Part shown: in pieces, positions 7,352 through 40,782 of the stretch
Numbering within the stretch: position 1 is the first letter of the stretch
Layout of the letters: each line of letters opens with the position of its first letter
Sequence record: OM135583.1
Source: Escherichia phage EP01
Reading direction: 5' to 3' (one strand)
Length of the DNA stretch: 64,000 nt
Program-made: the position numbers and the translations under genes
Notes under the pieces: generated by a model
The model's input: only the letters and a program-made list of their open reading frames with translations
What the model was told of the DNA's origin: nothing
Databases searched by the model: none

Positions 7352-7520
7352 GGAGTTTAATTTCCTTAGCAACTGAACTAAATACAGCACGGTCACAAAT
7401 CATGTGTTTGTTCCATTTAAGTACAGTATAATGAACATCTAGATCATCTACTGCTGTAACAATAACAATATGTCCGTTAACACGATAATACTGGTCCCTT
7501 TTAATCTCTTTATCAACCAT
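7344..7520 (-). CDS. Hypothetical small protein (58 aa, below track threshold)
   Basis: ATG at 7520 about 30 nt downstream of an early-promoter -10; MVDKEIKRDQYYRV... Confidence 0.4.
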   Translation of the reverse strand: MVDKEIKRDQYYRVNGHIVIVTAVDDLDVHYTVLKWNKHMICDRAVFSSVAKEIKLHG

Positions 7521-7548
7521 ATCAAATCCTCAAAGGCAATTCATATGT

Positions 7549-7581
7549 TAATAATACCACAGTTTGAACTTCTTGTAAACA
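7549..7581 (-). promoter_or_regulatory. T4-type early promoter
   Basis: Minus strand GTTTAC (7580-7575), 18 bp, TATTAT (7556-7551); precedes 58-aa ORF. Confidence 0.55.
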
Positions 7582-7652
7582 ACTTTGTGAAAATTATTTT
7601 AGGGAATGATAAGAAGTGAATGATAGTTAGAATGGTAATATACAGAATGTGA

Positions 7653-7674
7653 GAAAGAAAGGCCCAGAGGGCCC
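7653..7674 (-). terminator. Hairpin terminator downstream of nrdH
   Basis: Minus strand GGCCC-TCT-GGGCC followed by T-rich tract. Confidence 0.45.
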
Positions 7675-14665: not shown

Positions 14666-15667
14666 TTACTTAATTAGCTGTAAAGCTTGTTCCAAACGAT
14701 CAAGGCGATTAACAGATTCTTCCCAAATCATTTTAGCCTGCTCATATTCTTTCTGCGCTTTATTAGAAATTTCTAGAGCATCTTTATAAGCTTTTTCTAG
14801 TGCAATAACTTCTGGACGAATTTCTATCGGTTCAGGTGAATCATCAAGATTATCCATTAGTTCCTCAAGGGTAGTTTCTTCTTTAGGAGTATTCACAATT
14901 TCATCACATTTTTGTTGGTAAATTTCTTTATCAGTCGGTGAATAAGCGCATTTCACTTCACGAAGGCTAATTATAATTTTATATCCTTCCCAACCACACA
15001 TATTCTTAAAAGGATAAGTATGAATATTTTCTACCGTTTCCATACAAAGTAATGCGGTTTCTAATTGACGAGTTATAGTGCTAGCAATTGAGAAAAATTT
15101 ATTAATATTCTTTTGGTTAGTTTCTGGTGTAAAAAATCCATAATTCACAAAAATAGATACTTTATTTTTATCAAGTTCATATTCTTTTATGATAATCATA
15201 TCAGAAGCCAAAGGATGAATTTGACGATAATCGCCATAACATAATTTAGAAGCTGATTTTAGAATCTGTCCTTTGAAAAGTCTGAAATTACTAATCCAAC
15301 GACGAGTAAAAATATTCTCAGGGTCTTCTTTATTATTAAGATGATAAGAATTAACATCACCGAACCAATTATATCCTACTACATCTTTGGTTCGTTTAAT
15401 TTCTTTCCCAAAATTACCAAGAATATCCCGATTAACCAAATATGAAAGAAGACGAGACTCTTTAAAGGTTTTCTTGATAACATCTTTATCTACACGGCTA
15501 GAAATTTTACGAATTTCATGAATAAATTTAGCAGAAGAAACAATACTCGCGTCAACGCTATTGAGCCATTGATTGATAATAGAAATAACGCTATTTTGAC
15601 CAAACACCGGTATAGCTTTATCATCAATAACACTATTGAATGATTTGATATATTCGTTACGAGTCAT
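14666..15667 (-). CDS. Hypothetical protein, paralog family member 2
   Basis: ATG at 15667 with GAGGAG SD (track start 15718 lies inside promoter); motif F..GQILKSASKL and C-terminal coiled coil. Confidence 0.65.
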   Translation of the reverse strand: MTRNEYIKSFNSVIDDKAIPVFGQNSVISIINQWLNSVDASIVSSAKFIHEIRKISSRVDKDVIKKTFKESRLLSYLVNRDILGNFGKEIKRTKDVVGYNWFGDVNSYHLNNKEDPENIFTRRWISNFRLFKGQILKSASKLCYGDYRQIHPLASDMIIIKEYELDKNKVSIFVNYGFFTPETNQKNINKFFSIASTITRQLETALLCMETVENIHTYPFKNMCGWEGYKIIISLREVKCAYSPTDKEIYQQKCDEIVNTPKEETTLEELMDNLDDSPEPIEIRPEVIALEKAYKDALEISNKAQKEYEQAKMIWEESVNRLDRLEQALQLIK

Positions 15668-15693
15668 ATTAATCTCCTCAGTAGAAAGTAAGA

Positions 15694-15726
15694 ACATTAT
15701 ACCACATCCTTGTGGCAAAGTAAACT
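15694..15726 (-). promoter_or_regulatory. T4-type early promoter
   Basis: Minus strand GTTTAC, 18 bp, TATAAT (15701-15696), then GAGGAG SD and ATG 15667. Confidence 0.6.
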
Positions 15727-16753
15727 AGTTCAGTGCATTTAGTGCATTGTTCAGTTTAGAACGTTGCTTCGTAAGATTTTTGACTTTTTCTTGAGCTTTT
15801 TCTAGCATCTTTTCAGCTTCTAACACTTCATTAGTTGCTTTAACTAGTTCATCATCTACTGCTTTAAGAGAATTCTCAATCGCATCTGCATGCCATTTTT
15901 CAACAGGTTTAAGACTCGGATTTTCAACAGGAAGAAAACTCACTTTATTAAGTTTACATGCATCTATATTGCTTGAGCTATACATCCAAAATTTAGGATC
16001 GTTTGATGAGTAATTGGATAAATTTAAATTTAAGTTATCTTGCACTTCCTGCTTTTTCTCTTGCGGGACTTCGTCCTTTCTCAAAAAATCGTATTTAAAT
16101 GAAACGATCATATCAAGTTCATATGTTGTTGTGTCTAATTTAAATCGCTCAAAACGAGGTAAAATCTTAGACTGAACATCGGCAACAACATCCATATACT
16201 TAAATGCTTCTGTCAACTGCGATTTAAGGCATTCGCAAATTGAAAGAGAATTTTTTGTATTAGGTTTAAAGCTAATTCGTGCAGTTCTATTATTTTCTTT
16301 TAATGGTCTTACTTCCATCTGAAGAGTATAACCATCAAATTTCAGATTCTTTAAGTTAATATCAGAACCTTTTAATCGACTCGCAGTTGATAAAATTTGC
16401 TTTAATTGTCTACGGAACAGAGCAATAAATCTCCATTCAATACGATAATGATTTGGATTGAAAAATCCAGATGATAAATCGACCTTACTTTGACCAACGC
16501 CTTGAACAAATAGAGGATTTTTATAATCAATAGTTTTACAGAAATCGGTGAGCTGCTCACGAGCAGTCATTTGCGTAATATACCCTGCTTTACTAAAATT
16601 ACGCACCCATTCACTGCTATTCGTATACTTAAAGTGATGAATAACACGATTAACTTTATCAGGGTCTAAATTATTTTCACACAAAAATGTCATAACATCA
16701 CGAGTATAACTGGCATTACGAACCTTATCTTCAATTTGAGAACGAGTTTTCAT
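15725..16753 (-). CDS. Hypothetical protein, paralog family member 3
   Basis: 342 aa; motif FRRQLKQILSTASRL, C-terminal coiled coil. Confidence 0.65.
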   Translation of the reverse strand: MKTRSQIEDKVRNASYTRDVMTFLCENNLDPDKVNRVIHHFKYTNSSEWVRNFSKAGYITQMTAREQLTDFCKTIDYKNPLFVQGVGQSKVDLSSGFFNPNHYRIEWRFIALFRRQLKQILSTASRLKGSDINLKNLKFDGYTLQMEVRPLKENNRTARISFKPNTKNSLSICECLKSQLTEAFKYMDVVADVQSKILPRFERFKLDTTTYELDMIVSFKYDFLRKDEVPQEKKQEVQDNLNLNLSNYSSNDPKFWMYSSSNIDACKLNKVSFLPVENPSLKPVEKWHADAIENSLKAVDDELVKATNEVLEAEKMLEKAQEKVKNLTKQRSKLNNALNALN

Positions 16754-18116: not shown

Positions 18117-18644
18117 TTATGCGAGTACCGTCTTTAACCGTTCTTCAAACTTCCGAAGAGTATTTTGGCGTTCAGCTCTTTGCTTTTTGTAAGTTTCAAT
18201 ACGCTCTGAAATGAGAGAGTATCGTTCATTTACTGATTCTTTCATAAAATCAGGAATTTTACGAGAAGCTTTAATCTCATCAAATTTATCAATAACAGCT
18301 TGCTCTTCAGCAATTAAGTTATCATACATTAAAATATCTTTCTTGATGAACTCAATATCTTCTTGAGTTACACGAGATAATTTAGATGCTTTATCCTTTT
18401 TGTACTGTTCGTTAGTATCACGAGACCAGTGTAATGTACGATTTTTATTCGTATTTTTGTAAATTTCGACAATACCAATCTCATCAATAATAACGATCCA
18501 ATTCCAACGGGATTTGTAAATTTGTCCTCCATCAACAGTGATTTCACCTCCGATTGAGATGTCGTTAAAGAACTTGCTTTGTGCTTCAGATTTAAATTTA
18601 CCATCATTGTAATTTACCAAGTTGAAAATATCTTTAGCGTTCAT
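18117..18644 (-). CDS. Hypothetical protein
   Basis: 175 aa; ATG at 18644 with GGAGGAA SD downstream of early promoter. Confidence 0.65.
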   Translation of the reverse strand: MNAKDIFNLVNYNDGKFKSEAQSKFFNDISIGGEITVDGGQIYKSRWNWIVIIDEIGIVEIYKNTNKNRTLHWSRDTNEQYKKDKASKLSRVTQEDIEFIKKDILMYDNLIAEEQAVIDKFDEIKASRKIPDFMKESVNERYSLISERIETYKKQRAERQNTLRKFEERLKTVLA

Positions 18645-18671
18645 TTTCTGTTCCTCCGTAGTTGATAGTTG

Positions 18672-18703
18672 TATAGTACCACAGAGGAACAGTCTTGTAA
18701 ACC
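18672..18703 (-). promoter_or_regulatory. T4-type early promoter (cassette)
   Basis: GTTTAC (18702-18697), 18 bp, TACTAT (18678-18673); SD GGAGGAA and ATG 18644. Confidence 0.6.
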
Positions 18704-18704
18704 A

Positions 18705-19019
18705 CTAAAAGAAACTTCTTTCACAATTTTTTCCACTGAACCATGCGCTCACTGCTTTCTTAGTCTCAGGAGCAGTGTTATCCATAAACCATTCAAAGGC
18801 AGCCTTTTTATGATTCTGGAGGGCTTCTCGGGCTTTAATCTGCTCACGGTCTATTAACACTAACATATGAGCCTTTCTTGTCACCATGGGCTTCTTATGA
18901 TTTTTTGAATACTCCCAGTCATTTGTCCATCGCATTGTCGTTGCGAATTGAAATACAGCTTCTTTAATCTTAGTTTCGTAAATTTCACGAGCCTTTGAGT
19001 ATAACATCACTACCTCCAT
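18705..19019 (-). CDS. Hypothetical protein
   Basis: 104-aa ORF. Confidence 0.55.
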   Translation of the reverse strand: MEVVMLYSKAREIYETKIKEAVFQFATTMRWTNDWEYSKNHKKPMVTRKAHMLVLIDREQIKAREALQNHKKAAFEWFMDNTAPETKKAVSAWFSGKNCERSFF

Positions 19020-19108: not shown

Positions 19109-20077
19109 TTATTTCAGAAGAGTAACCTCAGCAATTTCTTCCCAACCGTTTTTGTCGGTCATAATAAAGTCAGCAAGATAAAGAGCAGTACGCAGTGAAA
19201 CATTTCGTAAACGATTAACATTAACTTTCATCCATGATAATGCTTTATAAGTTTCTTCATCAGAAAGACCGCGCTTTTGCATCATGTCAGTTGAAAGAAT
19301 AACATCTTCAACCCTGACCATAATTTCTTCATTAGTGTGAACACCCAAATCCAAATAAACTGAGCGGGACACTAATGCTTGTAAGTGTGGAGCAAGTTTA
19401 GTACCACGGTCTAATTCGCGGTCAATGTCAACGTTTGTGATAAAAACAATCGTTCCTTTAAATTCAAACTCACGGTCAATGCCTTTTTCTTCTAAGTAAG
19501 AAGATGCAGTGCTCCAGCAGACTTTACGGGTCTCTCCAGTGTCCAGAGCAGCTTTTAGAAGATTAAGAATGTCCATATCAGAGAAAACATCCACATCATC
19601 AATCAAAAGGACAGAATTCTCTTCACGATTATTCCAAAGCTGTTCATAAAGACCAATACCAGAGATTTTACCATTAATGCTTTTATATTCAATGTATCCA
19701 TTATCATTTGCTTTATTTAAAGCTTTATCTAAAGAATACGTTTTACCAATACCTGCTGCGCCAGAGATAATTAATGAACGAATATTTCCATTAATAATAC
19801 CATTCGTCATCATTCCCATAACATTAAATCTTTTATTAATGCGGGTTTTCATATCTTCATATGATTCTTTAACTTCTTCAACTTTTACACCATCATATGA
19901 AATATCTGATTTGTAAACCCAAACACCGCGACGTTTACCGTCAATTTCAACAAAAACTTTACCATCTCCTTGTGCATCTACCGGAGCATTATCTGGGAAC
20001 CATTCGCCTAAAAGCTCAAAAGTTCCAGAGATTTCTTTACCGAAGTAGATACCCTTATTGATAGTTACAGTTTTCAT
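19109..20077 (-). CDS. P-loop NTPase (AAA-like ATPase)
   Basis: Walker A SGAAGIGKT, Walker B VLLIDDVD; ATG at 20077 with GGAG SD (track start 20089 is TTG). Confidence 0.7.
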   Translation of the reverse strand: MKTVTINKGIYFGKEISGTFELLGEWFPDNAPVDAQGDGKVFVEIDGKRRGVWVYKSDISYDGVKVEEVKESYEDMKTRINKRFNVMGMMTNGIINGNIRSLIISGAAGIGKTYSLDKALNKANDNGYIEYKSINGKISGIGLYEQLWNNREENSVLLIDDVDVFSDMDILNLLKAALDTGETRKVCWSTASSYLEEKGIDREFEFKGTIVFITNVDIDRELDRGTKLAPHLQALVSRSVYLDLGVHTNEEIMVRVEDVILSTDMMQKRGLSDEETYKALSWMKVNVNRLRNVSLRTALYLADFIMTDKNGWEEIAEVTLLK

Positions 20078-20113
20078 TTTATTCTCCAAATCTGTATCAG
20101 TAGTTGATAGTTG

Positions 20114-20145
20114 TATAGTACCATAAAGCTTTATGCTTGTAAACC
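20114..20145 (-). promoter_or_regulatory. T4-type early promoter (cassette, directly downstream of hairpin terminator)
   Basis: GTTTAC (20144-20139), 18 bp, TACTAT (20120-20115); near-identical to 18672 and 35519 cassettes. Confidence 0.6.
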
Positions 20146-20163
20146 GTTTTGTGAAAAAATTTT

Positions 20164-20194
20164 AAAATAAAAAAGGGGACCTCTAGGGCCCCCC
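20164..20194 (-). terminator. Rho-independent terminator
   Basis: Minus strand GGGGGGCCC...GGTCCCC hairpin followed by TTTTTTATTTT; just downstream of stop of 20206..20691. Confidence 0.6.
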
Positions 20195-20205
20195 TTTGTG
20201 TTGAT

Positions 20206-20691
20206 TTATTCCATTTCTACTATATGCATGTTCTTTTTGCTATCAAAATATATGTTTTTAACTATTAACTCAGAATTAATTGGCAGTAAAAACTCTCTTT
20301 CATAATCTACCATACAAAGATTATCATAAAGCTTGTTAAGCTTATCATCGTCAGTTTGGCCAGATTCTTCAATTGCGATTAAATTTTCTAAAATGTCAAT
20401 CATAGCAGTCGAATAGTCAAAAACGTTTGCATTTTTTAACACTACTAAAACATTAGTCATATAGCGTTCTGCAGCAAACGTTTCAGCTATATGAGACTCA
20501 CTGCTAAAGGAAGTTATTCTTTTAAATTTGATTCTCCTATTAACTTCAAACTTATAAGATAGCACTTCCTCTATTGTAAGTCCTCTAAAAAGTATGTCTT
20601 TAATCTCAAGTTTGTCTTTAATGTAATCATTAACACGCTTATGATTAAAATCATTAATTTTGTTGCCAAGGCATTGCATTAAAATATGCAT
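20206..20691 (-). CDS. Hypothetical protein
   Basis: 161-aa ORF flanked by hairpin terminators and early promoter. Confidence 0.6.
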   Translation of the reverse strand: MHILMQCLGNKINDFNHKRVNDYIKDKLEIKDILFRGLTIEEVLSYKFEVNRRIKFKRITSFSSESHIAETFAAERYMTNVLVVLKNANVFDYSTAMIDILENLIAIEESGQTDDDKLNKLYDNLCMVDYEREFLLPINSELIVKNIYFDSKKNMHIVEME

Positions 20692-20736
20692 TGTATTCTC
20701 CTCAATTTTTAAAGAGCAATTAATTAACTACACATA

Positions 20737-20768
20737 TATTATAATATGCTTTGCGACAGAAGTAAACA
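20737..20768 (-). promoter_or_regulatory. T4-type early promoter
   Basis: GTTTAC (20767-20762), 18 bp, TATAAT (20743-20738). Confidence 0.55.
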
Positions 20769-20789
20769 ACTTTGTGACGTCATTTTAAA

Positions 20790-20814
20790 CAAAAAAGGGA
20801 GCCCGAAGGCTCCC
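20790..20814 (-). terminator. Rho-independent terminator
   Basis: Minus strand GGGAGCC-TTCG-GGCTCCC followed by TTTTTT; directly after stop of nucleotidyltransferase-like gene. Confidence 0.65.
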
Positions 20815-20816
20815 TA

Positions 20817-21830
20817 TCATTTATAATAACTTCGATGGTTTTCAAGATACACCCTCTCAAGGAAGTCATCCCAGAAACCCATGTCTACTTTTTGCTGCAT
20901 ACCGTTCTTAGAAGCTTCAATTGATGCTGCTTCTACTTGATCGACCACATCTTCCAAAAACTCTTGAACCGTTTTAAATGGATGTTTACCCAACTTCACG
21001 TCGAGAATAAATGGAGCATCTTGGAGTGGATAGACTAAGTCACCAGTTTTGTAAATTTCCAATAGTTGGAGTCCACCGCGGCAAGCATGACTCAGTGCTT
21101 TCCAGTCAATGCCCTCATTCGCTTCAGCTTTACGAGCACGTTCGCCGTATTCAGCATCAAGTTTATTCAAAGACTGCTTAAGCTCAATAAGAGAAAGAGT
21201 TGTCTGATATTTACGACCCAACACAGTATAGAACATTTGTGGGCCTGTTTTCTCATGATTATGGAACACCCATTCACAGAATTCGTTTTCTGGAAGACGA
21301 TGTTTAATATCTTCTACACGAGTACGACGTTGCTTAGTCGAACCATCTTCTCGGTAATCAACCCACTGATCGGGGATTTGATTAACTACTTTCAATACAT
21401 CACGTAATGCAGCCAAACGAGAACCCTTAACACCATATTTAGAAGCTTGCTTGCGGACATATCCTAAATAGGATTTCATGTTAGTCGTATAAAAACGAGA
21501 ACGATTGTCTTGAATAAACTTCCATACATCAGGCAAATCAGATTTAACCACTAGCTCAGGTGGAGTGTGAAGCATATCCAATGCTACAGTTTCACCATCT
21601 GCTGCTAATTTAAAGAAATACTTAAGACTGTATAGTTCATGGTCAATATCATCTTTAGTGTTTTTAGATGATGTGTTGTTAGTGTTTTTACTCATATGCT
21701 CTTTAACATTTCCGATAAGAATATCACGAGCAGGAGGAACAAAGATTTCTTTAAAATCTACATCAGATTCTGGAGTAGAAGTTCCATAAAGATGACTACC
21801 AAAATAGCTTTTCATTACTGTTTTCATCAT
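20817..21830 (-). CDS. Pol-beta-superfamily nucleotidyltransferase-like protein
   Basis: 337 aa; N-terminal GS-x10-DVD motif (YFGSHLYGTSTPESDVDF) typical of minimal nucleotidyltransferases. Confidence 0.6.
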   Translation of the reverse strand: MMKTVMKSYFGSHLYGTSTPESDVDFKEIFVPPARDILIGNVKEHMSKNTNNTSSKNTKDDIDHELYSLKYFFKLAADGETVALDMLHTPPELVVKSDLPDVWKFIQDNRSRFYTTNMKSYLGYVRKQASKYGVKGSRLAALRDVLKVVNQIPDQWVDYREDGSTKQRRTRVEDIKHRLPENEFCEWVFHNHEKTGPQMFYTVLGRKYQTTLSLIELKQSLNKLDAEYGERARKAEANEGIDWKALSHACRGGLQLLEIYKTGDLVYPLQDAPFILDVKLGKHPFKTVQEFLEDVVDQVEAASIEASKNGMQQKVDMGFWDDFLERVYLENHRSYYK

Positions 21831-22288
21831 TCAGCCTTATATTCAATAACAGGACATACTTTAGCTTTACGAGCTTTTAAAAATTCGACGATAATAGATT
21901 TCTTGGGTTTAATAGGAGGTAAACCTTTATACGCCCTATCAATATTTTCTACATGTAAAGCATAATCCTTTTTCCATTTATAATCTTTATATTTTTCATG
22001 TAGTTGTGCAGGAATAACAAATGAACCAATAATAAGTAAAACAAGCAAAATGGCAAGTATAAATGCTGATGGAATAAGAGTCCATAAACTACCAAAAATA
22101 AGCCATTTCTGCATGATTTCTGCGCAGATGATAGTTAGACCTGCGAGTATAGTACATCCGAAAAAAGAAACGAAAAATGTAGGAATAACAATAGACCAAA
22201 AATATGCACACAGTGTCTTAGGTCGTTTCCATTCATCATTAAACATTTTGAATAATTTATAGTGCCAAGAGCTTTCATTAATAATCAT
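21827..22288 (-). CDS. Membrane protein
   Basis: 153 aa with at least two hydrophobic helices. Confidence 0.6.
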   Translation of the reverse strand: MIINESSWHYKLFKMFNDEWKRPKTLCAYFWSIVIPTFFVSFFGCTILAGLTIICAEIMQKWLIFGSLWTLIPSAFILAILLVLLIIGSFVIPAQLHEKYKDYKWKKDYALHVENIDRAYKGLPPIKPKKSIIVEFLKARKAKVCPVIEYKAE

Positions 22289-22290
22289 AA

Positions 22291-22812
22291 TTATCCTTTC
22301 ATTGAAGGTGTAACAGTTGTTAAATACTTAATCATAGCTTCAGCTTCTGATTTTGATAATGAAATTTCTCCATTGTTTTGACGAATAGAAATAAAATCCG
22401 GATGACGGTCACCACCAGCTTTTAAAACACACATATAAGTATCAGTTTCATCTTCAATATCTGAAATGATTGAAGCAGTTCCGCATGAATGTGGTTTTTG
22501 ATAAATCAATACAGCTTTTCTTCCGCCATTTGACTGTTCATAAACTTTTAACACATCAAACAAATCACTTCTTTTATCAATAGCTAAAATGTTATTTTCA
22601 TCTTCAATGTTAAATCCTTCGGATACTTCATAAAGTGTCACCCATAAATCACCGATGTCAATAACAGCATTTACTTTTCCATGACTTTCAAGAGCACGGC
22701 AAATTTTCTTGATTTCGTCATAACTCATTTTAATAATATCATCTCCTTGAATAAGGAAGATGTCATTTTTAAATTCAACACGAATTAAACCGCTTTCACT
22801 TGAAATAAACAT
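22291..22812 (-). CDS. Hypothetical protein (tandem paralog A)
   Basis: 173 aa; C-terminus SKSEAEAMIKYLTTVTPSM similar to next gene. Confidence 0.6.
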   Translation of the reverse strand: MFISSESGLIRVEFKNDIFLIQGDDIIKMSYDEIKKICRALESHGKVNAVIDIGDLWVTLYEVSEGFNIEDENNILAIDKRSDLFDVLKVYEQSNGGRKAVLIYQKPHSCGTASIISDIEDETDTYMCVLKAGGDRHPDFISIRQNNGEISLSKSEAEAMIKYLTTVTPSMKG

Positions 22813-23376: not shown

Positions 23377-23510
23377 AATTACATACTCCTTTGAATAATA
23401 TCAATAATGTTGTTCACCAGATTATAAGTAAACATTGGGTAATTATATTGAATCATCACATACACAACAAACAAAACTTTCATTCTCTTCTCCTTGGCAG
23501 TTGACAAGAT

Positions 23511-23542
23511 TACTATATCATAACCTTGCCAACTTGTAAACC
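23511..23542 (-). promoter_or_regulatory. T4-type early promoter
   Basis: GTTTAC (23541-23536), 18 bp, TATAGT (23517-23512). Confidence 0.5.
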
Positions 23543-23706
23543 ATTAAATGACGTTTTCAATAAAATTCTGAAGCTTTGTGTGAGCATCAATCATGATTTT
23601 CATTTCTTCCTTTGCGAAAGCTGTACCTCTTTCACGAGAAGAATACTCATAATCAGAAACTGCATTAGCATATTCTTCAATTAGCTTCATTAAAAACATC
23701 TGCTTT

Positions 23707-24107: not shown

Positions 24108-24295
24108 TATTCCACCACATATGAAAGAGAGAACATTGCACACGCCATATGAGTTGCAGCTTCATCACACATATCATAACGTTTCTTAAGAAGTTCTACA
24201 AGCTCTTCACTGGTAACTTCATCCATGTCGACGAAAAAATCACCATTAATGATGACGTAGATATTTCCTTCTTGATTAAGTGCTTCAATTTTCAT
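24107..24295 (-). CDS. Hypothetical protein
   Basis: ATG at 24295 with GAGGAGAA SD just downstream of early promoter (track start further upstream). Confidence 0.55.
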
Positions 24296-24312
24296 GATGT
24301 TCTCCTCTTTAT

Positions 24313-24344
24313 CCGATGGTTGTATAGTATCACAGCTCAAATGG
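24313..24344 (-). promoter_or_regulatory. T4-type early promoter
   Basis: GTTTAC (24343-24338), 18 bp, TACTAT (24319-24314); SD and ATG 24295. Confidence 0.55.
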
Positions 24345-24363
24345 AAAGTAAACCGGTAAAATG

Positions 24364-24385
24364 AAAAAAGTCTCCCGAAGGAGAC
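24364..24385 (-). terminator. Rho-independent terminator
   Basis: Minus strand GTCTCC-TTCG-GGAGAC followed by TTTTTT. Confidence 0.6.
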
Positions 24386-24390
24386 TAATG

Positions 24391-27831: not shown

Positions 27832-28293
27832 TCATTGAGTTTTAATTACTGCTTTAGAAGCCTTTCCTGGTAAACGACGACTGTTGATAATTGCCATCCT
27901 GCACTGAAGTGACGGGTCTTTGAACTTCGCATTAGGTTTACAAACTGTAAATCCAAGCCAAAGATTTCCATCTGTGATTTCTAAACGTCCAGGACGATAT
28001 TCAACCCCATCAATAAAATCCTCATCAATGTCAGGACGTGGAGGCATACTCAGGAATTCATTAACTTCTAAAACGTGGTCTTTTATTTTATGGAATAATT
28101 CAAAAACATATGTCTCATCAATCTCCCGTTGAATTGCACGATCAAGAAGATGCTGAGAATATTTTAGATGAAACGATGAGACCCCTGCTGCTTTTGATGC
28201 CTCACGAATCTCATTGTTAATTTGACGAAACTCCGACTCAAAGTGACGACGGAGCTTATTTCGACGGATAAAAACTTCTGTGTTGATAGTCAT
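27832..28293 (-). CDS. regB: Site-specific endoribonuclease RegB
   Basis: 153 aa (T4 RegB length); position after tk; classical early promoter directly upstream. Confidence 0.8.
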   Translation of the reverse strand: MTINTEVFIRRNKLRRHFESEFRQINNEIREASKAAGVSSFHLKYSQHLLDRAIQREIDETYVFELFHKIKDHVLEVNEFLSMPPRPDIDEDFIDGVEYRPGRLEITDGNLWLGFTVCKPNAKFKDPSLQCRMAIINSRRLPGKASKAVIKTQ

Positions 28294-28319
28294 GTTATTC
28301 TCCTCTTAACTGATAGAAA

Positions 28320-28351
28320 AATTATACCACAGTCAAGAGGAAAAGTAAACA
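28320..28351 (-). promoter_or_regulatory. T4-type early promoter of regB
   Basis: GTTTAC (28350-28345), 18 bp, TATAAT (28326-28321), then GAGGAGAA SD before regB ATG. Confidence 0.7.
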
Positions 28352-28352
28352 G

Positions 28353-28631
28353 TTATTCTTTAAATCTAATCAATTTATTCATAGACTTTGAAACTTCTGC
28401 ACGAACCTCATGTAAGTTTTTAAGCTGTTCAAGACGCTGCTCATAGTAAGCAATTTCATCTTCTTCGAGACAGTCCTGTGAATCTTCTTTAAGATAACGC
28501 GCATAGTCCTGGAAAGCGTTACGAATTACTTCCTGGAAATCATCAAGACTTTGAATTTTCTTAGGAGCAACAGATACACGACGAGGGGCAGTATAATACT
28601 CATAACCAAGCCCTGCGCTTAATTGAGCCAT
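28353..28631 (-). CDS. Hypothetical protein
   Basis: Track ORF 28353..28673 trimmed to internal Met (MAQLSAG). Confidence 0.5.
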
Positions 28632-28897
28632 TAATATTTTTCCTCTGGTTGGAACACAGCACGACAAGCCCACATACTGGCTTCTTTGAGTTTAGTTTTA
28701 GCAATAGTTAACTGATCAAGGCTTTCAGCATAATTCTTCGCGAATTCACAGTCTTCACAATTATCTAGTGCTTCCCAGAATTCATCATATAAAGCATCAA
28801 AGATAAGTCCTAAACGAACTTCAGCATCTTTGATAGCATTCACTTTACCGATTTTCTCTTCAGTATGTGGCTTATAACCCTTAATATCTTCAATCAT
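28631..28897 (-). CDS. Hypothetical protein (vs.4/Acb2-position small protein; identity unverified)
   Basis: 88-aa ORF in the vs-regB gene block; cannot confirm Acb2 homology by eye. Confidence 0.5.
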
Positions 28898-29111
28898 ATT
28901 TTACTTCCTCACCAGTACCCAAATCATATTCAACTAAACGAATAGGTTCATGAATGCCATATCCCTGAACAGAAATTTCTGTCGTAGGATAAATTCCACT
29001 AATATCACCCATGTTCCACGCTTCATTAAATTGCTGTTCGCCTGAATTACTAAACCACTCGGCGAAAGCATTTAGCACATCTTCAGAACCTTCAATAATT
29101 ATCTTTGCCAT
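28890..29111 (-). CDS. Hypothetical protein
   Basis: 73-aa ORF. Confidence 0.5.
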   Translation of the reverse strand: MAKIIIEGSEDVLNAFAEWFSNSGEQQFNEAWNMGDISGIYPTTEISVQGYGIHEPIRLVEYDLGTGEEVKYD

Positions 29112-29485
29112 TACAAACTCTCAGTAAAGGTACGAGCGATAACGTCGCGCTGCTGTTCCGGAGTCAGAGAGTTAAAGCGAACTGCATAACCGGATACACG
29201 GATGGTCAGCTGCGGATATTTTTCCGGATGCTTAACTGCATCTTCCAGAGTTTCGCGACGCAGAACGTTAACGTTCAGGTGTTGACCACCTTCAATTTTA
29301 ACTGTAGGTTGTGTTTCAATTTCAATTTCACGGGCATGCAAACCATAGAAAATTTCTGGGTCTACAAAAGAGTCCTCTTTAAAAGTTTTAGAGACAATAA
29401 TTCGTGCTTGAATACCATCTTCAAAATAAATAGTACCTTTATGCGTGCCTTCAAGAATTTGATATGCTTTCATATAACCTCTCAA
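29111..29485 (-). CDS. Autonomous glycyl radical cofactor (GrcA/YfiD-like; T4 Y06I-type)
   Basis: 124 aa; C-terminal ~60 aa [59 protein letters not shown] matches E. coli GrcA with glycyl radical motif RVSGY. Confidence 0.9.
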
Positions 29486-29808
29486 TTAGAAAATAAATTT
29501 ATCCAAGATTGCTCTTTAATTAAAAATGGCTCAGAATCATATGCCATTAAACTTTGGGTGATTAGTCCTTTAAAAGGTCCATCAATAAATTCCATGGCAA
29601 AATATGGAATTTTATTCATTAATCTTGCATTAGGAGCAGTGCACAAAACTCTACATCCTTTGAATACGCCTTTTTGTAATTTGTATTGCTTAGGATAAAA
29701 TTCGCTCAAGACATTGTTATTTGCCAAAATTTCAAAATGATTCACCAATTTATTTTTAATAGTTTTTGGCGAAAAATAAAGATATTCGAAAAGCTGAGTG
29801 TCTGTCAT
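29482..29808 (-). CDS. Hypothetical protein
   Basis: Track ORF 29482..29862 trimmed to Met at 29808. Confidence 0.5.
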
Positions 29809-30395: not shown

Positions 30396-30524
30396 TTCTG
30401 TATTTACCCATTACCGCACTTGGGCTCGACCTTATTACAGGTTGGCGGGAATCCCTCACAGAATTATGAGGTCCAGCTTGTTCCCATGTTATTTGAATGT
30501 AAATAGGCCTAAGTATAGGCCTTA

Positions 30525-31103
30525 TTAATTACCACGGGCTGCATTAGCAACGGCATAAGCGTACTGAACATTAGCGTCCTTAAACGTACCTTTAGAGGTA
30601 TCTATTTCTGCCTTAAAGCCGCCTTTAGCCATAACATCGGCAAATTCTTTACGGAAAGCCATTGCATCAAGACCTTTCCATGATGATTTGTGCTTGGCGA
30701 ATTCAAGACCAGCGTAGTTGACAGCCTTAGCTAATTTATTATCAATGACCCATTTACCGGCTTTAGGCACAAACTTCGGACCTTTTTGTTTAGAGAACAG
30801 TTTTAAATTCCAGCGACGAAGATCACTGTCGGCTTTAACAAAAGCTGCGTCTAAGTTACTAGCAACAACATCTTCAATATGAGCAAATTTAAGTCCGTCA
30901 ACTTCAATATTTAGATCGTTACGCCAGCGAAGTCCTTCCCAAGCGAAAGCTTTAAAGTCAGAAGCTTTTGTGGCTAGATATCGTTCAAGTGGAGCAGTTT
31001 TAGGGTCAAAGCCGTTTCCGCCACGATAAGTCCACTCATCTTTATTAATGCCTTTGGCCTTTACTACAGAAGCTTCAGCAATAAATTCTTGATACGTTTT
31101 CAT
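30525..31103 (-). CDS. ipIII: Internal head protein with capsid-targeting sequence (IPIII-like)
   Basis: 192 aa; N-terminal MKTYQEFIAEA capsid-targeting sequence; size and position next to e match T4 ipIII. Confidence 0.7.
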   Translation of the reverse strand: MKTYQEFIAEASVVKAKGINKDEWTYRGGNGFDPKTAPLERYLATKASDFKAFAWEGLRWRNDLNIEVDGLKFAHIEDVVASNLDAAFVKADSDLRRWNLKLFSKQKGPKFVPKAGKWVIDNKLAKAVNYAGLEFAKHKSSWKGLDAMAFRKEFADVMAKGGFKAEIDTSKGTFKDANVQYAYAVANAARGN

Positions 31104-31129
31104 TTTTGTTCCTATTGTTTTAATTCATG

Positions 31130-31447
31130 TTATTCTTTAGGGAAGTTTTTAGAGTATGCGTCATAAAGTTTATTACCGATGCGTCGGAAAACTCTAGCTG
31201 CAAAACGGTTTTCAGGGTTTTTAATCATGATTTGCATCATGTAAGTTCCTGCATCCGAAAGAGCTTCTTCATAGTACCCATTAATTTCTTTAAGAGTCCT
31301 ACGTTTACCACCAGGACCATCAACAGTAATTTTCCATTTACCTGTAGAAGTGCGACTTGGCGGCTCAACTTGTTCAATCCAGATATAACCGCCTTCTACA
31401 CGTTGTCCTTGGGCAGATTCTGCAATAAATTCTTTAAACGTTTTCAT
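31130..31447 (-). CDS. ipII: Internal head protein with capsid-targeting sequence (IPII-like)
   Basis: 105 aa; N-terminal MKTFKEFIAES; own early promoter upstream. Confidence 0.65.
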   Translation of the reverse strand: MKTFKEFIAESAQGQRVEGGYIWIEQVEPPSRTSTGKWKITVDGPGGKRRTLKEINGYYEEALSDAGTYMMQIMIKNPENRFAARVFRRIGNKLYDAYSKNFPKE

Positions 31448-31483
31448 ATGGTTCCTTTAAATATTTTAATTAGTAACTATGAA

Positions 31484-31515
31484 TATACTATCACAGTTCT
31501 AGGAGAAAGTAAACA
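31484..31515 (-). promoter_or_regulatory. T4-type early promoter of ipII-like gene
   Basis: GTTTAC (31514-31509), 18 bp, TAGTAT (31490-31485). Confidence 0.55.
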
Positions 31516-31518
31516 ACT

Positions 31519-32049
<531 letters not shown>

Positions 32050-34932: not shown

Positions 34933-35221
34933 AGTATTTCCTTAGGTTAATTAAGATTTAAAATCCATGAGAGTATTATACTCCGGATAGTTTGTAAACT
35001 ATTTCAACATCGCCTTTTGCTGCTTTATAACCTTCAGCCCAAGATACAACCGAGTTTTTATCTGAAGATTCAAATTCTGGCATTGGACTTTCATCAATGT
35101 TCACACAGTATGTTTCTTCATTTTCGTCAAACCAAATAGTTAAAGTAGTCATTTATTTCTCCGCTTCTGTGATTGTTTTGATAAGTCTATAATAACACCG
35201 TCCTTGGTGTTTGTACACCAC

Positions 35222-35539
35222 TTATTTCATATTATTGAAATATTCTTCTGCGATTTCATCGTTATCGTGGTAAACTTTAGAAGACAGTTTAACATAACCT
35301 TCAGCAGTGAACATATTAATCACAACTTTTACAGTATACCACTGACCGTCTTCATTACCCATTACTGCGTAAGTTTCAAACATCGGATGGTCAGGACCGA
35401 TGACTTTAATATCATTCACTGTACGACCGAAATCTTCTGAAACGCATTTCATAAAGAAGTTGAACAGTTCGCCGTAATTATCCATTTCATTCTCCAAGTT
35501 GTTTTTCTGTATCAGTAGTTGATAGTTGTATAGTACCAT
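35222..35539 (-). CDS. Hypothetical protein
   Basis: 105 aa; early promoter directly upstream. Confidence 0.6.
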   Translation of the reverse strand: MVLYNYQLLIQKNNLENEMDNYGELFNFFMKCVSEDFGRTVNDIKVIGPDHPMFETYAVMGNEDGQWYTVKVVINMFTAEGYVKLSSKVYHDNDEIAEEYFNNMK

Positions 35540-35550
35540 GGAAGAACGGG
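35519..35550 (-). promoter_or_regulatory. T4-type early promoter (cassette)
   Basis: GTTTAC (35549-35544), 18 bp, TACTAT (35525-35520). Confidence 0.6.
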
Positions 35551-35694
35551 GATGTAAACAGTTTTGTGAAAAAAATTTTTTAAAAAGTTTTAGGGAATTC
35601 TAGGACAGGGAGGGGCAATTAAAGGATAGGATAATATATTATAAAGGGTAGAAACTAAATGATTCTTAGAGAGGTCCAGAAAGGCCTAGATACC

Positions 35695-35719
35695 AAAAAG
35701 CCCTATCATTTAGATAGGG
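35695..35719 (-). terminator. Rho-independent terminator after internal-protein-like gene
   Basis: Minus strand CCCTATC-loop-GATAGGG followed by TTTTT. Confidence 0.55.
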
Positions 35720-35727
35720 ATTTAAAA

Positions 35728-36291
35728 TTATTTATCTAGTTTAGCTATTATAGCTTCTGCGGCAGCTTTTAGTTTAGATGCGGTGTTAATACGATTTTTA
35801 ATTTCAGTATACGCATCGCCAAGAACGTCAAGGCTATCAGAATAAACGCTTACACTATTGCGTTCGCTATTTGAAATAGAACCTTTAGTTTTACGATCAA
35901 AATCGATGTACACGTCTTGAAGATCACGGGCTGCCTTCTTTGCATCATCCAATGCATCAAGAGCTTTATTCAAAGCATTAACGTATTTTTTAGTGTCGAA
36001 CATATTCTTAGAAATTTTAACAGGCGCACGTTCAGGAGTAGCTAAGGCAGATTTAGGAACCTGAGCGCCAGATGCCAGTTTCTTAGAAATTTTGAAAAAT
36101 GCTTTATTGAATTTATTTTCTTGACTCATCGTAAAAGAACTATTATCAATGTTATACATTTCAATAGCTTTAGCTTTCCACTTAAGAAAATCGCCACGGT
36201 CTTTTGGGTCCAATTGGAAGAATACTTTAGTAAGTTCTGCTTCAGATGGTAATTTTGCTGCTTCGGTTAAAAATTCGGCATAAGTTTTCAT
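35728..36291 (-). CDS. Internal-protein-like gene with capsid-targeting sequence
   Basis: 187 aa; N-terminal MKTYAEFLTEAAK capsid-targeting-like sequence; hairpin terminator just downstream. Confidence 0.65.
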   Translation of the reverse strand: MKTYAEFLTEAAKLPSEAELTKVFFQLDPKDRGDFLKWKAKAIEMYNIDNSSFTMSQENKFNKAFFKISKKLASGAQVPKSALATPERAPVKISKNMFDTKKYVNALNKALDALDDAKKAARDLQDVYIDFDRKTKGSISNSERNSVSVYSDSLDVLGDAYTEIKNRINTASKLKAAAEAIIAKLDK

Positions 36292-36381: not shown

Positions 36382-36408
36382 AAAAAGCCCCAACCTTTCG
36401 GTCGGGGC
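36382..36408 (-). terminator. Rho-independent terminator ending the tRNA/small-RNA transcription unit
   Basis: Minus strand GCCCCGACC-GAAA-GGTTGGGGC stem/tetraloop followed by TTTTT. Confidence 0.7.
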
Positions 36409-36412
36409 TAAG

Positions 36413-38653: not shown

Positions 38654-38680
38654 TTTATTCTCCTCAGTAGTTGATAGGGT

Positions 38681-38712: not shown

Positions 38713-38714
38713 AC

Positions 38715-38939
38715 TTATTCCGCTCCAGCAGCTTTCAAAAGCTTTTTAAGATTAGCAGTGCCACGAGCAGAAAACGTGACTTTACCATCCTTTTCACTAA
38801 TAGAGCCAGTTAACTTAGAAAGTTTATCGCTAGGAATTTTTTTAAAATCACTTAATGTACCATCAAAAGTTTTCGTAACAATTGGTAGTTCATCTTCATG
38901 TCTTTTAGCTTCAGCGATAAATTTTTGATAAGTTTTCAT
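38715..38939 (-). CDS. Internal-protein-like gene with capsid-targeting sequence (cassette 1)
   Basis: 74 aa; MKTYQKFIAEA N-terminus; own promoter cassette. Confidence 0.7.
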   Translation of the reverse strand: MKTYQKFIAEAKRHEDELPIVTKTFDGTLSDFKKIPSDKLSKLTGSISEKDGKVTFSARGTANLKKLLKAAGAE

Positions 38940-38966
38940 TTTATTCTCCTCAGTAGTTGATAGGGT

Positions 38967-38998
38967 AATAATATCACTACCCTATCTAAAAGTAAACG
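38967..38998 (-). promoter_or_regulatory. Early promoter, internal-protein cassette
   Basis: GTTTAC (38997-38992), 18 bp, TATTAT (38973-38968). Confidence 0.6.
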
Positions 38999-39007
38999 GT
39001 TTATAAA

Positions 39008-39316
39008 CTATTTTATTCCGCGTGATGCAATTGTGTTCTGCCGTTTAGCACCAGTTTGTTTAAAGTCATGATTGTCGATTTGATCGGTACGAGCAACTCC
39101 GAATGATGATTTGATTTTAGCTTTAGATCCTTTAGTTATAGAAATAAACATCTCGGAAGCCCCTTTCTTAAAGTCCGAGGCGATTACTTCAACGCCGTTC
39201 TTAGCAAGTGACCTCAGAATTGCTTCCGCATACTCATCATCAAGACCCGCTTGAGTATAAATAATGAATGTCTTTGGTGCAGCCGCTTCATTGATAAATT
39301 CTTGGTAAGTTTTCAT
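39008..39316 (-). CDS. Internal-protein-like gene with capsid-targeting sequence (cassette 2)
   Basis: 102 aa; MKTYQEFINEAA N-terminus. Confidence 0.7.
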   Translation of the reverse strand: MKTYQEFINEAAAPKTFIIYTQAGLDDEYAEAILRSLAKNGVEVIASDFKKGASEMFISITKGSKAKIKSSFGVARTDQIDNHDFKQTGAKRQNTIASRGIK

Positions 39317-39345
39317 TTTATTTTCCTAATTAATTTTGATAAGGT

Positions 39346-39377
39346 AATAGTACCACAACCCTATTTAAAAGTAAACT
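39346..39377 (-). promoter_or_regulatory. Early promoter, internal-protein cassette
   Basis: GTTTAC (39376-39371), 18 bp, TACTAT (39352-39347). Confidence 0.6.
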
Positions 39378-39649
39378 CATTTTAAATAAATTGCGTATTT
39401 TTTATAACCCGCTGACTCATGACGAAGACCCTTATCATTAGCAAAACGCTCAATGTTGTTAATTTGATTCTGGTCAAGTTCAGAGATGTCAAACACGAAA
39501 TAGTTACGTTTGTTACCAACTGTTACATAGTCAGTTAAATCAATACCATATAGGTAATTGATGTTATCAATCATAGTCTTGACAGCTTTGCTAATTTTTA
39601 CTTTTTCGTTAAAAGTAGCTTCATTGATAAATTCTTTAAATGTTTTCAT
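39377..39649 (-). CDS. Internal-protein-like gene with capsid-targeting sequence (cassette 3)
   Basis: 90 aa; MKTFKEFINEAT N-terminus. Confidence 0.7.
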   Translation of the reverse strand: MKTFKEFINEATFNEKVKISKAVKTMIDNINYLYGIDLTDYVTVGNKRNYFVFDISELDQNQINNIERFANDKGLRHESAGYKKYAIYLK

Positions 39650-39676
39650 TTTATTCTCCTCAGTAGTTGATAGGGT

Positions 39677-39708
39677 AATAGTATCACAACTAAAACCCTA
39701 TGTAAACA
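39677..39708 (-). promoter_or_regulatory. Early promoter, internal-protein cassette
   Basis: GTTTAC (39707-39702), 18 bp, TACTAT (39683-39678). Confidence 0.6.
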
Positions 39709-39725
39709 ACTTTGTGAAATATTTA

Positions 39726-40013
39726 TTACAAAAGATTTTTAGCAATAATCTTGAGATGTGCCGCAGAAATGTGTTTAGCTTTAAACAACGCAGTTTCTTC
39801 AGCAGGAGAGATAATGATTGTAGCACCATCCTTTTTAGCAGACCACCCATCACCTAGGTAAACAGTACCTTTGATTTCTTCGCCATCAACCAAACTAATC
39901 ATTGGTTTACCTTCTCGTCCTTTATTTGCTTTAATAACTTCAGAAGTAAGAGTAGCTTCAGTAATAGTAGAAACCGGGATAGTTGTAGAAGTAAATTCTT
40001 TGAAAGTTTTCAT
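39726..40013 (-). CDS. Internal-protein-like gene with capsid-targeting sequence (cassette 4; ipI position)
   Basis: 95 aa (T4 IPI precursor length), MKTFKEFTSTT N-terminus, adjacent to 57B as ipI is in T4; sequence identity with T4 IPI not verified. Confidence 0.65.
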   Translation of the reverse strand: MKTFKEFTSTTIPVSTITEATLTSEVIKANKGREGKPMISLVDGEEIKGTVYLGDGWSAKKDGATIIISPAEETALFKAKHISAAHLKIIAKNLL

Positions 40014-40042
40014 TTTATTTTCCTAATTAATTTTGATGAGAT

Positions 40043-40074
40043 AATAGTATCACTACCTCATCAGCGTGTAAACA
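40043..40074 (-). promoter_or_regulatory. Early promoter, internal-protein cassette (ipI position)
   Basis: GTTTAC (40073-40068), 18 bp, TACTAT (40049-40044). Confidence 0.6.
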
Positions 40075-40085
40075 ACTTTGTGAAA

Positions 40086-40782
<697 letters not shown>

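Follow-up and report, generated by a model that had tools for sequence, protein, structure and literature searches.

Early promoters of T4 type dispersed in the accessory region of Escherichia phage EP01, and their probable use as patches of homology in gene gain and loss

The 64,000-nt stretch of DNA analysed here (the window; Escherichia phage EP01, record OM135583.1) comes from a T2/T4-like Tequatrovirus. Its 18–22 kb part is matched over at least 80% of its length by 466 phage records, with 96–98% identity to ECO07P1, HMD-9, HY01 and T2. Over 20–44 kb, the maximum coverage by any one of 50,697 records is 89%, and the best match is split into 11 pieces. By comparison with annotated T2 and T4, the minus strand carries, in order, genes 46, 47, a-gt, 55, nrdH/G/D, 49, pin and nrdC to nrdC.11; these are followed by mobD.x, rI, tk, vs, regB, vs.3–8, ipIII, e and e.x, and then by tRNAs, the internal-protein (ip) locus, 57B/A, 1, 3, 2 and 4. 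The late genes of the plus strand begin at 43.5 kb. An Rfam search of 1–44 kb returned 8 tRNAs only, and no Rfam family overlaps any of the cassettes described below in this region.

A sequence-only reading of the window had listed recurrent promoter-like units in front of accessory genes. A position weight matrix was built from these sites, and the window was scanned with it on both strands. The matrix matches exactly 16 sites, which span 7580 to 40073 on the minus strand; the plus strand and the DNA past 40.1 kb have none, and the scores leave a gap between 12 and 27 bits that no site occupies. The G of GTTTAC lies at 7580, 15725, 18702, 20144, 20767, 23541, 24353, 28350, 31514, 35218, 35559, 38711, 38997, 39376, 39707 and 40073. 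All 15 of the coordinates that had been listed are real sites, and one more, the GTGTAC variant at 35218, was absent from the list. The pattern GTTTAC-N15-TGnTAnnnT with at most one mismatch has 20 matches, none of them on the plus strand; shuffled sequence has 1.98 ± 1.36, and 20 or more were reached in 0 of 100 shuffles. The matches beyond the matrix sites (2548, 31623, 34999 and 41563) may be weaker promoters. The cassettes, designated by the position of the G, are listed here together with a hairpin that lies near the first of them.

7518..7605, minus strand: P7580 cassette, with UP tract, GTTTAC, 17-nt spacer, TGn plus -10, leader, and ATG at 7520
7660..7674, minus strand: G+C hairpin GGGCCCTCTGGGCC with a T-rich run after it, some 80 nt upstream of P7580 (-13.5 kcal/mol, z -3.0)
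15665..15750, minus strand: P15725 cassette (nrdC.4), with a short stem in the spacer; begins at the stop codon of the upstream gene
18642..18727, minus strand: P18702 cassette (nrdC.8), with a 15-bp stem and the -10 in its loop (-23.2 kcal/mol, z -5.7)
20075..20197, minus strand: P20144 composite of predicted terminator and promoter (nrdC.10), with hairpin at 20171-20197, T-run, UP tract, GTTTAC at 20144, -10 at 20115-20120, RegB-type ribosome-binding site, and ATG at 20077
20689..20815, minus strand: P20767 composite of predicted terminator and promoter, with hairpin at 20796-20815; ahead of an extra 161-aa ORF
23482..23566, minus strand: P23541 cassette (mobD.2 region), with a 15-bp stem around the -10 (-19.0 kcal/mol, z -6.1)
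24293..24386, minus strand: P24353 composite of predicted terminator and promoter (mobD.5), with hairpin at 24369-24386
28291..28375, minus strand: P28350 cassette (regB; -21.6 kcal/mol, z -5.5)
31445..31539, minus strand: P31514 cassette, ahead of a 105-aa gene with capsid-targeting sequence; at one end of a 3.15-kb segment that T6 lacks
35150..35243, minus strand: P35218 cassette, the GTGTAC variant; borders the e.7 replacement seen in comparison with T4 and T6
35483..35584, minus strand: P35559 cassette (e.8), of a long-leader sub-family together with P20144
38651..38736, minus strand: P38711 cassette (trna.4), at the downstream end of the internal-protein module array
38937..39022, minus strand: P38997 cassette, ahead of a 74-aa internal protein (-16.4 kcal/mol, z -5.2)
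39314..39401, minus strand: P39376 cassette, ahead of a 102-aa internal protein (Ip7-like)
39647..39732, minus strand: P39707 cassette, ahead of a 90-aa internal protein (Ip9-like)
40011..40098, minus strand: P40073 cassette, ahead of ipI (-14.8 kcal/mol, z -5.3)

The -35 box is an exact GTTTAC in 15 sites and GTGTAC in one, the -35/-10 spacing is a constant 17 nt in 16 of 16, and TGnTAnnnT is exact in 14, with one mismatch in the other two. Upstream of GTTTAC there is a UP-like A/T-rich tract (consensus AAAAaatTTTCAcAAAGTT), which ends in TTTCAcAAAGTT and holds information above background to about -25 from GTTTAC. Downstream, conservation runs through tGTG-TAcTAT and then ccTATCAAcTAct, as far as GAGGAGAATAAAATG. 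The sequence-only reading would have been contradicted by a motif search that found nothing over-represented beyond the generic -35 and -10 hexamers; the 20 matches against about 2 expected, and a conservation profile that extends far past the two hexamers, support it in this respect. The profile coincides with known polymerase contact regions.

T4 early promoters have GTTTAC at -36 to -31, an A-rich tract and a GT-rich stretch before -12 (Nolan, 2006; PMC1524935), and have been termed ‘uber UP/-35/TGn/-10’ promoters with extra consensus regions (Hinton, 2010; PMC2988021). The T4 consensus of Liebig and Rueger and of Wilkens and Rueger is taken here as these two reviews give it. The elements of the window share with the T4 promoters the GTTTAC box, the A-rich UP-like tract, the GT-rich, TGn-extended -10 and TAnnnT at 17 nt, and like them they precede early genes on the early-gene strand; nothing essential differs. 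Unlike T4, the window has extra copies ahead of the 161-aa ORF and of three further internal-protein genes. With the same matrix, 32 sites are found in the T4 genome, all on one strand, and most window sites are positional orthologues of T4 sites. Dhakavirus WG01 yields only 4 matrix sites; the matrix is therefore Tequatrovirus-specific, and distant genomes were left out of matrix scans. The T4 records NC_000866 and AF158101 carry no promoter features, and the annotation of fPS-65 was used for comparison instead. P7580 is the orthologue of the T4 55.6 promoter, and its fPS-65 orthologue is annotated as ‘predicted early promoter’; the fPS-65 site orthologous to P24353 is annotated with both a terminator and an early promoter. 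Matrix, pattern and consensus thus agree with published T4 descriptions, as had been proposed, and we infer that the 16 repeats are T4-type early promoters, with activity predicted from the consensus and the T4 orthologues. Orthology to T4 and the regB literature (PMC3014915) suggest that they would be transcribed immediately by unmodified host polymerase.

Ungapped comparison of the copies from -30 to +60 gives a mean pairwise identity of 48% and a maximum of 72% (P20144 vs P35559), and random 90-mers give 27% ± 5%. In the spacers, identity is 31%. Functional constraint, rather than recent copying, therefore accounts for much of the similarity. A repeat search finds sub-families, the cassettes of the ip locus included, with 76–91% identity over 66–92 nt, and leaders within sub-families are up to 100% identical. 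The description of the units as near-identical over about 60–70 bp is correct within sub-families but does not apply to the set as a whole.

A quarter of the promoters lie just behind a putative intrinsic terminator. A tight G+C hairpin with a T-run is found directly upstream of three (P20144, P20767 and P24353), and P7580 has one about 80 nt upstream; the folding z-scores of the hairpins at these four promoters are -2.7 to -4.5. T-runs follow these upstream G+C hairpins only, not the stems that span the -10, and the terminator role is predicted. No upstream G+C hairpin with T-run is present at the remaining 12 promoters, most of which abut the stop codon of the preceding gene within a few bases. 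The cassette had been described as a unit of hairpin terminator and early promoter, which is correct for three of the 16, with the fourth hairpin some distance away, but incorrect for the other 12. Over 89 nt that include the hairpin, the P20144 cassette has 97.8% identity to T4 146837-146925, where the gene 32 terminator and the frd.3 promoter are located, and four more T4 loci are matched by other segments of the cassette. Thus, the combined hairpin and promoter recurs genome-wide, though not at most of the sites that had been listed.

At its 5′ side, the cassette includes the upstream stop codon in the A/T-rich part, and at its 3′ end the ribosome-binding site and start codon of the downstream gene. 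GGAG is present in 12 of 16 leaders. In four leaders (P20144, P38711, P38997 and P39707), GGAGAATAAAA is a perfect copy of GGAGRAYARAA, and these are the only four perfect copies in the 64-kb window on both strands. GGAGRAYARAA is the consensus for strong RegB/S1 cleavage at the ribosome-binding site (PMC3014915), and therefore the conservation through this site has a known functional reading.

Eleven genes of the window start with MKT, and seven of these have a shared 33-nt start (repeat family D2), as follows.

39981..40013, minus strand: capsid-targeting codons of ipI (MKTFKEF...; Pfam IPI_T4, E=2e-53)
39617..39649, minus strand: targeting codons MKTFKEFINEA of the 90-aa internal head protein (phrog_7673)
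39284..39316, minus strand: targeting codons MKTYQEFINEA of the 102-aa internal head protein (phrog_2667)
38907..38939, minus strand: targeting codons MKTYQKFIAEA of the 74-aa internal virion protein (phrog_8765)
36259..36291, minus strand: targeting-like codons MKTYAEFLTEA of a 187-aa ORF (phrog_2280, unknown function); without early promoter
31415..31447, minus strand: targeting codons MKTFKEFIAES of a 105-aa ORF between e and ipIII (phrog_3966); a T4 junction lies here
31071..31103, minus strand: targeting codons MKTYQEFIAEA of the ipIII homologue (phrog_5341, E=1e-117); without early promoter directly upstream

The shared start encodes MKT(Y/F)x(E/K)F(I/L)xE, with the full pattern in six of the seven; ipI has MKTFKEF and then diverges. 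The capsid-targeting motif is an N-terminal MKT(Y/F)xEF(I/L)xE, which ends in the (L/I)xE motif of the prohead protease. Five of the seven genes belong to five different ‘internal head/virion protein’ PHROG families, ipI also to Pfam IPI_T4, and the 187-aa and 105-aa proteins match families of unknown function only. As five families have one N-terminus, the latter is best seen as a capsid-targeting signal on unrelated proteins. Tandem duplication as the source of the repeats at 38.6–40.1 kb is ruled out, since the protein bodies are in different families. The only MKT gene behind a cassette that does not encode an internal protein is nrdC.10. Conservation of the promoter into the first codons had been offered as the reason why many accessory genes begin with MKT; this has to be abandoned, as seven of the 11 carry the capsid-targeting sequence and two of those seven have no early promoter.

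In the region from 57B to trna.4, the nine phages compared have between 1 and 4 modules, each consisting of promoter, capsid-targeting sequence and ip body, and among 891 records only 5 share the internal-protein arrangement of the window. Internal-protein loci that are polymorphic among T-even phages are known (Repoila et al., 1994, EMBO J 13:4181, as cited in PMC2839356 and PMC4122927). As presented in the citing papers, these loci have in common with the window unrelated small proteins with a shared leader and N-terminal targeting sequence, an early promoter for each, and a number and identity that vary among close relatives. The 187-aa ORF without early promoter (35728-36291), which bears a similar targeting sequence, sets the window apart from the loci so described: it belongs to neither of the two classical internal-protein loci but occupies a third site, with e.8 on one side and the stable-RNA/tRNA cluster on the other.

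The window was compared with T2, T4, T6 and fPS-65 by blastn, and three junctions were read base by base. There are differences for which the two flanks overlap in the relative by 14–71 nt exactly at cassettes. T6 is without 3.15 kb that comprise vs.3 to vs.8, ipIII and the extra ip gene; its junction follows the upstream flank of P31514 to the shared TGTTTACTTT in the -35 box, and continues as P28350. T4 has no 161-aa ORF between nrdC.11 and nrdC.10, and there the P20767 hairpin is kept and the switch to the P20144 promoter takes place in the T-run. The T4 ip locus, which lacks three of the ip genes, switches within 44 identical nt between the -10 and the ATG, and these 44 nt are identical in three internal-protein cassettes. 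In fPS-65, the nrdC.10/11 slot has two small ORFs between annotated terminator and early promoters. Some internal-protein promoters are chimeric: their stem arms do not match, which is what crossovers within the -10 region would produce; the stem of P39376 is degenerate, as though its arms derived from two different cassettes. Each of these events may be either an insertion or a deletion.

In the comparison with related genomes, which the sequence-only reading had suggested as a check, gene-content junctions thus repeatedly lie inside cassettes. Of 47 unique breakpoints, 12 fall in cassette zones, which make up 6.5% of the sequence (p = 3e-5 with a uniform null); relative to a null of any gene boundary, the enrichment is weak (p about 0.09–0.29). 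Many differences from the relatives are unrelated to cassettes, and at least five of these involve homing-endonuclease genes or an intron: T4 has mobC and I-TevII inserted and mobD replaced, T6 has additional endonuclease genes, and the 980-1834 ORF belongs here too. The denV/ipII gap is not at a cassette but at a hairpin (30505-30522). The proposal that such units mediate modular shuffling is borne out by three in-cassette junctions and by the 1–4 ip modules, but only a modest enrichment is left when gene boundaries serve as the null.

Promoter-early stem-loop (PeSL) cassettes were described in RB49 and phi1 (Arbiol, 2010; PMC2839356), and the concept was extended to PST/T4 and nt-1/KVP40, with a PST/T4 promoter form TTTACW-N17-TAYWAT (Comeau, 2014; PMC4122927). 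This form fits 16 of 16 window sites. PeSLs and the window elements both consist of an A/T-rich tract, early promoter, stem-loop, ribosome-binding site and start codon; both are intergenic and situated in hyperplastic regions, and both adjoin indels between close relatives, with crossovers inside the element. A stem-loop of PeSL type, upstream, in the spacer or overlapping the -10, is present in 12 of the 16 sites. Stem-loops that overlap the -10 are the commonest class in RB49/phi1, and the window has such stems. There are also differences: four of 16 window sites have no convincing stem-loop, the stems are A/T-rich and variable in sequence rather than polyG/polyC, and several include the ribosome-binding site and have no T-run. 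Judged by sequence, the window elements fit the published PeSL-type regulatory cassettes (PMC2839356; PMC4122927).

The elements are very probably T4-type early promoters that double as patches of homology for gene gain and loss, with the promoter activity and the mechanism of recombination as the predicted parts of this reading. The motif and its statistics, the anatomy of the cassettes and the junctions inside them are direct observations. Host sigma-70 RNA polymerase would use all 16 promoters in the first minutes of infection. The composite signal would consist of an A/T-rich UP-like tract, GTTTAC at -35, a 17-nt spacer and a TGn-extended -10 (TAcTAT), followed by a conserved start region TATCAAC, a GGAG ribosome-binding site and the start codon. 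This long functional consensus, together with sub-families identical over 30–90 nt, accounts for the dispersed direct repeats before small accessory genes. The very active homologous recombination of the phage would use the promoters as crossover points, and at the internal-protein loci the homology would run on into the first 11 codons, i.e. the capsid-targeting sequence. For recombination of T4 type, short homology of less than 50 bp is sufficient (Singer, 1982, as cited by Arbiol; PMC2839356). Modules of promoter plus gene would be deleted, inserted or swapped, and expression of neighbouring genes would be undisturbed.

It can be asked whether convergence alone would suffice, i.e. whether these are independently optimised strong promoters with no special role in recombination, as differences fall at gene boundaries anyway. 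The low identity between copies (48%, and 31% in spacers), a conservation concentrated at polymerase and ribosome contacts, and a breakpoint enrichment that is not significant over the gene-boundary null are all consistent with this. It is nevertheless unlikely, because sub-families are identical where no constraint is known (44 nt from the -10 to the ATG, and 89 nt at 97.8% between distant loci), because the overlaps of 14–71 nt between matched blastn segments of the relative are situated exactly at cassettes, and because some promoters are chimeras in which the stem arms do not match. Arbiol et al. raised another possibility for PeSL stem-loops (PMC2839356): in place of general homologous recombination, an integron-like system in which the stem-loops are recognised by a site-specific recombinase or DNA-binding protein dedicated to them. 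The maintenance of stems by compensatory change might be seen in this light. But the three junctions are at three different places (the -35 box, the T-run, and the stretch from -10 to ATG), which points to no fixed site, stem sequences vary widely among cassettes, and no candidate recombinase was noticed incidentally in the window, so that a dedicated enzyme is highly improbable. The promoter with an added role as a homology patch is therefore the preferred reading.

The stem-loops deserve separate consideration. Eight of the 16 promoters have a stem that brackets the -10, with the hexamer in the loop, or that is located in the spacer, and all eight are in the lowest 5% of background windows; the z-scores of the -10-bracketing stems are -5.2 to -6.1. 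In P18702, the spacer sequence CTGTTCCTCTG pairs with the ribosome-binding site CGGAGGAACAG, and in P28350 the spacer anti-Shine-Dalgarno sequence TTCCTCTTGACTG pairs with the regB ribosome-binding site CAGTTAAGAGGAG. The P38997 stem (GATAGGGTA/TACCCTATC) brackets the -10 hexamer, and the P40073 stem (GATGAGGTA/TATCTCATC) shows two compensatory double changes relative to it. The stem is weak or absent at 35218, 35559, 39376 and 31514. Native folding energies have a mean of -11.8 kcal/mol vs -8.2 ± 0.6 for randomly re-paired halves, none of which (0/7383) is as low. In T4, 14 of 32 early promoters have the -10 in a stem loop, with -12.65 vs -8.34 ± 0.44 kcal/mol for re-paired halves, and anti-Shine-Dalgarno tetramers are found in 8 of 32 T4 spacers vs a background of 5%. 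Strong stems are present at 14 of 25 T4 promoters without an upstream terminator and at 0 of 7 with one (hypergeometric p = 0.009, at a post hoc threshold); by a criterion of at least 7 bracketing pairs, no significant avoidance of terminator promoters is seen (Fisher p = 1), and the folding energies give a Mann-Whitney p of 0.14.

Stem arms were compared directly between lineages as sequences, as a MAFFT alignment of regB leaders put the arms out of register. Two lineages, whose proteins are 77% and 68% identical, have TTCTCCTCTAGTTG/CAACTAGAGGAGAA and TCTCCTGTAAG/CTTACAGGAGA, respectively, in place of the regB arms TTCCTCTTGACTG/CAGTTAAGAGGAG found here; WG01 has TCTCCTGTAG/CTACAGGAGA. At nrdC.8, the arms are CTGTTCCTCTG/CGGAGGAACAG here, and both WG01 and the viral-contig relative furthest removed (67%) have TCTCCAGTAG/CTACTGGAGG. 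Compensatory changes thus keep the regB and nrdC.8 stems across three or four lineages. The ip promoters have five arm types among nine phages, and some are chimeras with broken stems. Arbiol et al. (PMC2839356) drew stem-loops located between -35 and -10 or overlapping the -10, which they read as attenuators, and noted weaker A/T-rich analogues at T-even ip loci. No earlier description of anti-Shine-Dalgarno stems in early promoters was found in the literature searched, which does not extend to older print literature and is not proof of novelty. The pairing of an anti-Shine-Dalgarno sequence in the spacer with the gene's own ribosome-binding site, kept by compensatory change, may be new, although its novelty is uncertain.

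Several of these stems include the ribosome-binding site and have no T-run, and therefore look like translational switches, not terminators. A tentative suggestion, which we consider possible but on the whole doubtful, is that the stems bracketing the -10 act as promoter-coupled switches of translation and RNA stability. The 5′ arm, often an anti-Shine-Dalgarno sequence, would be in the untranscribed -35/-10 spacer. With a predicted start about 7 nt after the -10, proximal transcripts are without the 5′ arm; the transcript from the proximal early promoter would have a free ribosome-binding site, and would be translatable and open to RegB cleavage at GGAG. In a read-through transcript from an upstream promoter the site would be paired, and modules would be insulated where a terminator is absent. 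Such a switch could explain why RegB cuts promoter-proximal early mRNAs and spares longer transcripts that bear GGAG. Hairpins with the same logic are known in T4 e, soc, 49 and I-TevI (PMC3014915). There, the hairpin contains a promoter; transcripts that start at it are without the 5′ arm and can be translated, whereas in those that read through from upstream the ribosome-binding site is paired. For gene e, that review describes a late embedded promoter; the window has an early one, and the 5′ arm is located between its -35 and -10 boxes. The reviews examined make no mention of regB or nrdC.8 as hairpins with embedded promoters.

The match to published T4 early promoters, PeSLs and ip loci means that the phenomenon is already known (Repoila, 1994; Arbiol, 2010; Comeau, 2014), and apart from a possible stem result, only the particular gene content of this phage is new. 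The window represents one more T-even genome with T4 early promoters and PeSL-type shuffling, and in this respect adds little. It has value for annotation in the coordinates of 16 promoters, four predicted terminators and seven genes with the capsid-targeting sequence, and it provides a worked example in which crossover points are placed at base level in a -35 box, a terminator T-run and a leader. The only part of potential wider importance is the covarying anti-Shine-Dalgarno stem in early promoters, that of regB included. If the stem is indeed functional, it would give a simple sequence rule for which transcripts are translated or cleaved by RegB.

The early promoters of regB and nrdC.8 contain hairpins whose arms lie in the spacer between the -35 and -10 hexamers and at the ribosome-binding site, with the -10 hexamer in the loop. 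Some internal-protein promoters combine arms of different cassette types.

28296-28346, minus strand: regB early-promoter stem of 15 bp, in which an anti-Shine-Dalgarno sequence in the spacer pairs with the regB ribosome-binding site
18647-18698, minus strand: nrdC.8 promoter stem, -23.2 kcal/mol, of the same design as the regB stem
39347-39376: mixed-arm internal-protein promoter

The regB stem is kept by compensatory changes in three other lineages, and finds no mention in the RegB review. In WG01, a Dhakavirus, and in distant viral-contig relatives, the arms of the nrdC.8 stem are a different pair that is again complementary; in a third lineage the stem brackets the -10 hexamer and the ribosome-binding site is unpaired. 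The mixed-arm promoters, present also in T2, UFV-AREG1 and WG01, join a 5′ arm from one cassette type to a 3′ arm from a second. Pairing in their stems is disrupted, with energies of -1.9 to -8.1 kcal/mol, which is the outcome that crossovers inside the -10 loop would be expected to give.

The T4 promoters of alt.-2 and rnlA (genome positions 123093 and 136336) are nearly identical, including the anti-Shine-Dalgarno stem GTCCCTCGTGTTG...CATGAGGA, and are a further cassette pair that has spread to distant loci.

The early-promoter pattern has four extra matches, each with one mismatch and under the threshold of the position weight matrix built from the cassette sites.

2519-2548, minus strand: extra promoter match
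31594-31623, minus strand: extra promoter match
34970-34999, minus strand: extra promoter match
41534-41563, minus strand: extra promoter match

One is found upstream of gene 1 and another upstream of e.6. The four could represent early or middle promoters of lower strength.

Several gene-content differences lie away from cassettes. T4 denV and ipII (878 bp) are missing in the window, as they are in T2, and the junction (30485-30522) is at a palindromic hairpin, AGGCCTATACTTAGGCCT, not at a promoter. Two other differences have no relation to the promoter cassettes.

980-1834, minus strand: 284-aa ORF, missing in fPS-65; a homing endonuclease is annotated at the counterpart position in T6
21827-22812, minus strand: two ORFs in place of T4 mobD

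Two further genes begin like the internal-protein genes.

35728-36291, minus strand: 187-aa ORF starting with MKTYAEFLTEA
31130-31447, minus strand: 105-aa ORF with the capsid-targeting sequence MKTFKEFIAES, phrog_3966 (unknown function)

The start of the 187-aa ORF is similar to the capsid-targeting sequence and has the LxE cleavage motif. This ORF is situated apart from both classical internal-protein loci, in the interval from e.8 to the stable-RNA/tRNA cluster, with a hairpin on either side (35701-35719 and 36386-36409). It is missing in T4, T2 and T6, is found in 164 phage records, and, in a sample of 30 of these, is termed hypothetical wherever the record is annotated. The 105-aa ORF, flanked by e and the ipIII homologue, is absent from T4, where the junction is within the common targeting-sequence and leader stretch.

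Other differences are located at the cassettes themselves.

20206-20691, minus strand: 161-aa ORF in a slot between two cassettes

This ORF shows similarity to a portion of an RNA polymerase ADP-ribosylase (phrog_832, E=1e-23); its annotation in ECO07P1 is modA_2. In T4 and T6 nothing occupies the slot; fPS-65 has two small ORFs there. T6 lacks the entire 3.15-kb segment at 28351-31501, with the genes vs.3 to vs.8 and ipIII and one additional internal-protein gene, and its junction is in the -35 box common to both flanking promoters. The only stretch of the internal-protein locus matched by Klebsiella phages, e.g. pKp20 and KpV477, is 38622-38939. The matches (85-91% identity) comprise P38711, one of the early-promoter cassettes, and the trna.4 start, and in some phages the 74-aa internal-protein gene as well. 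This similarity suggests that a cassette module was transferred between genera.
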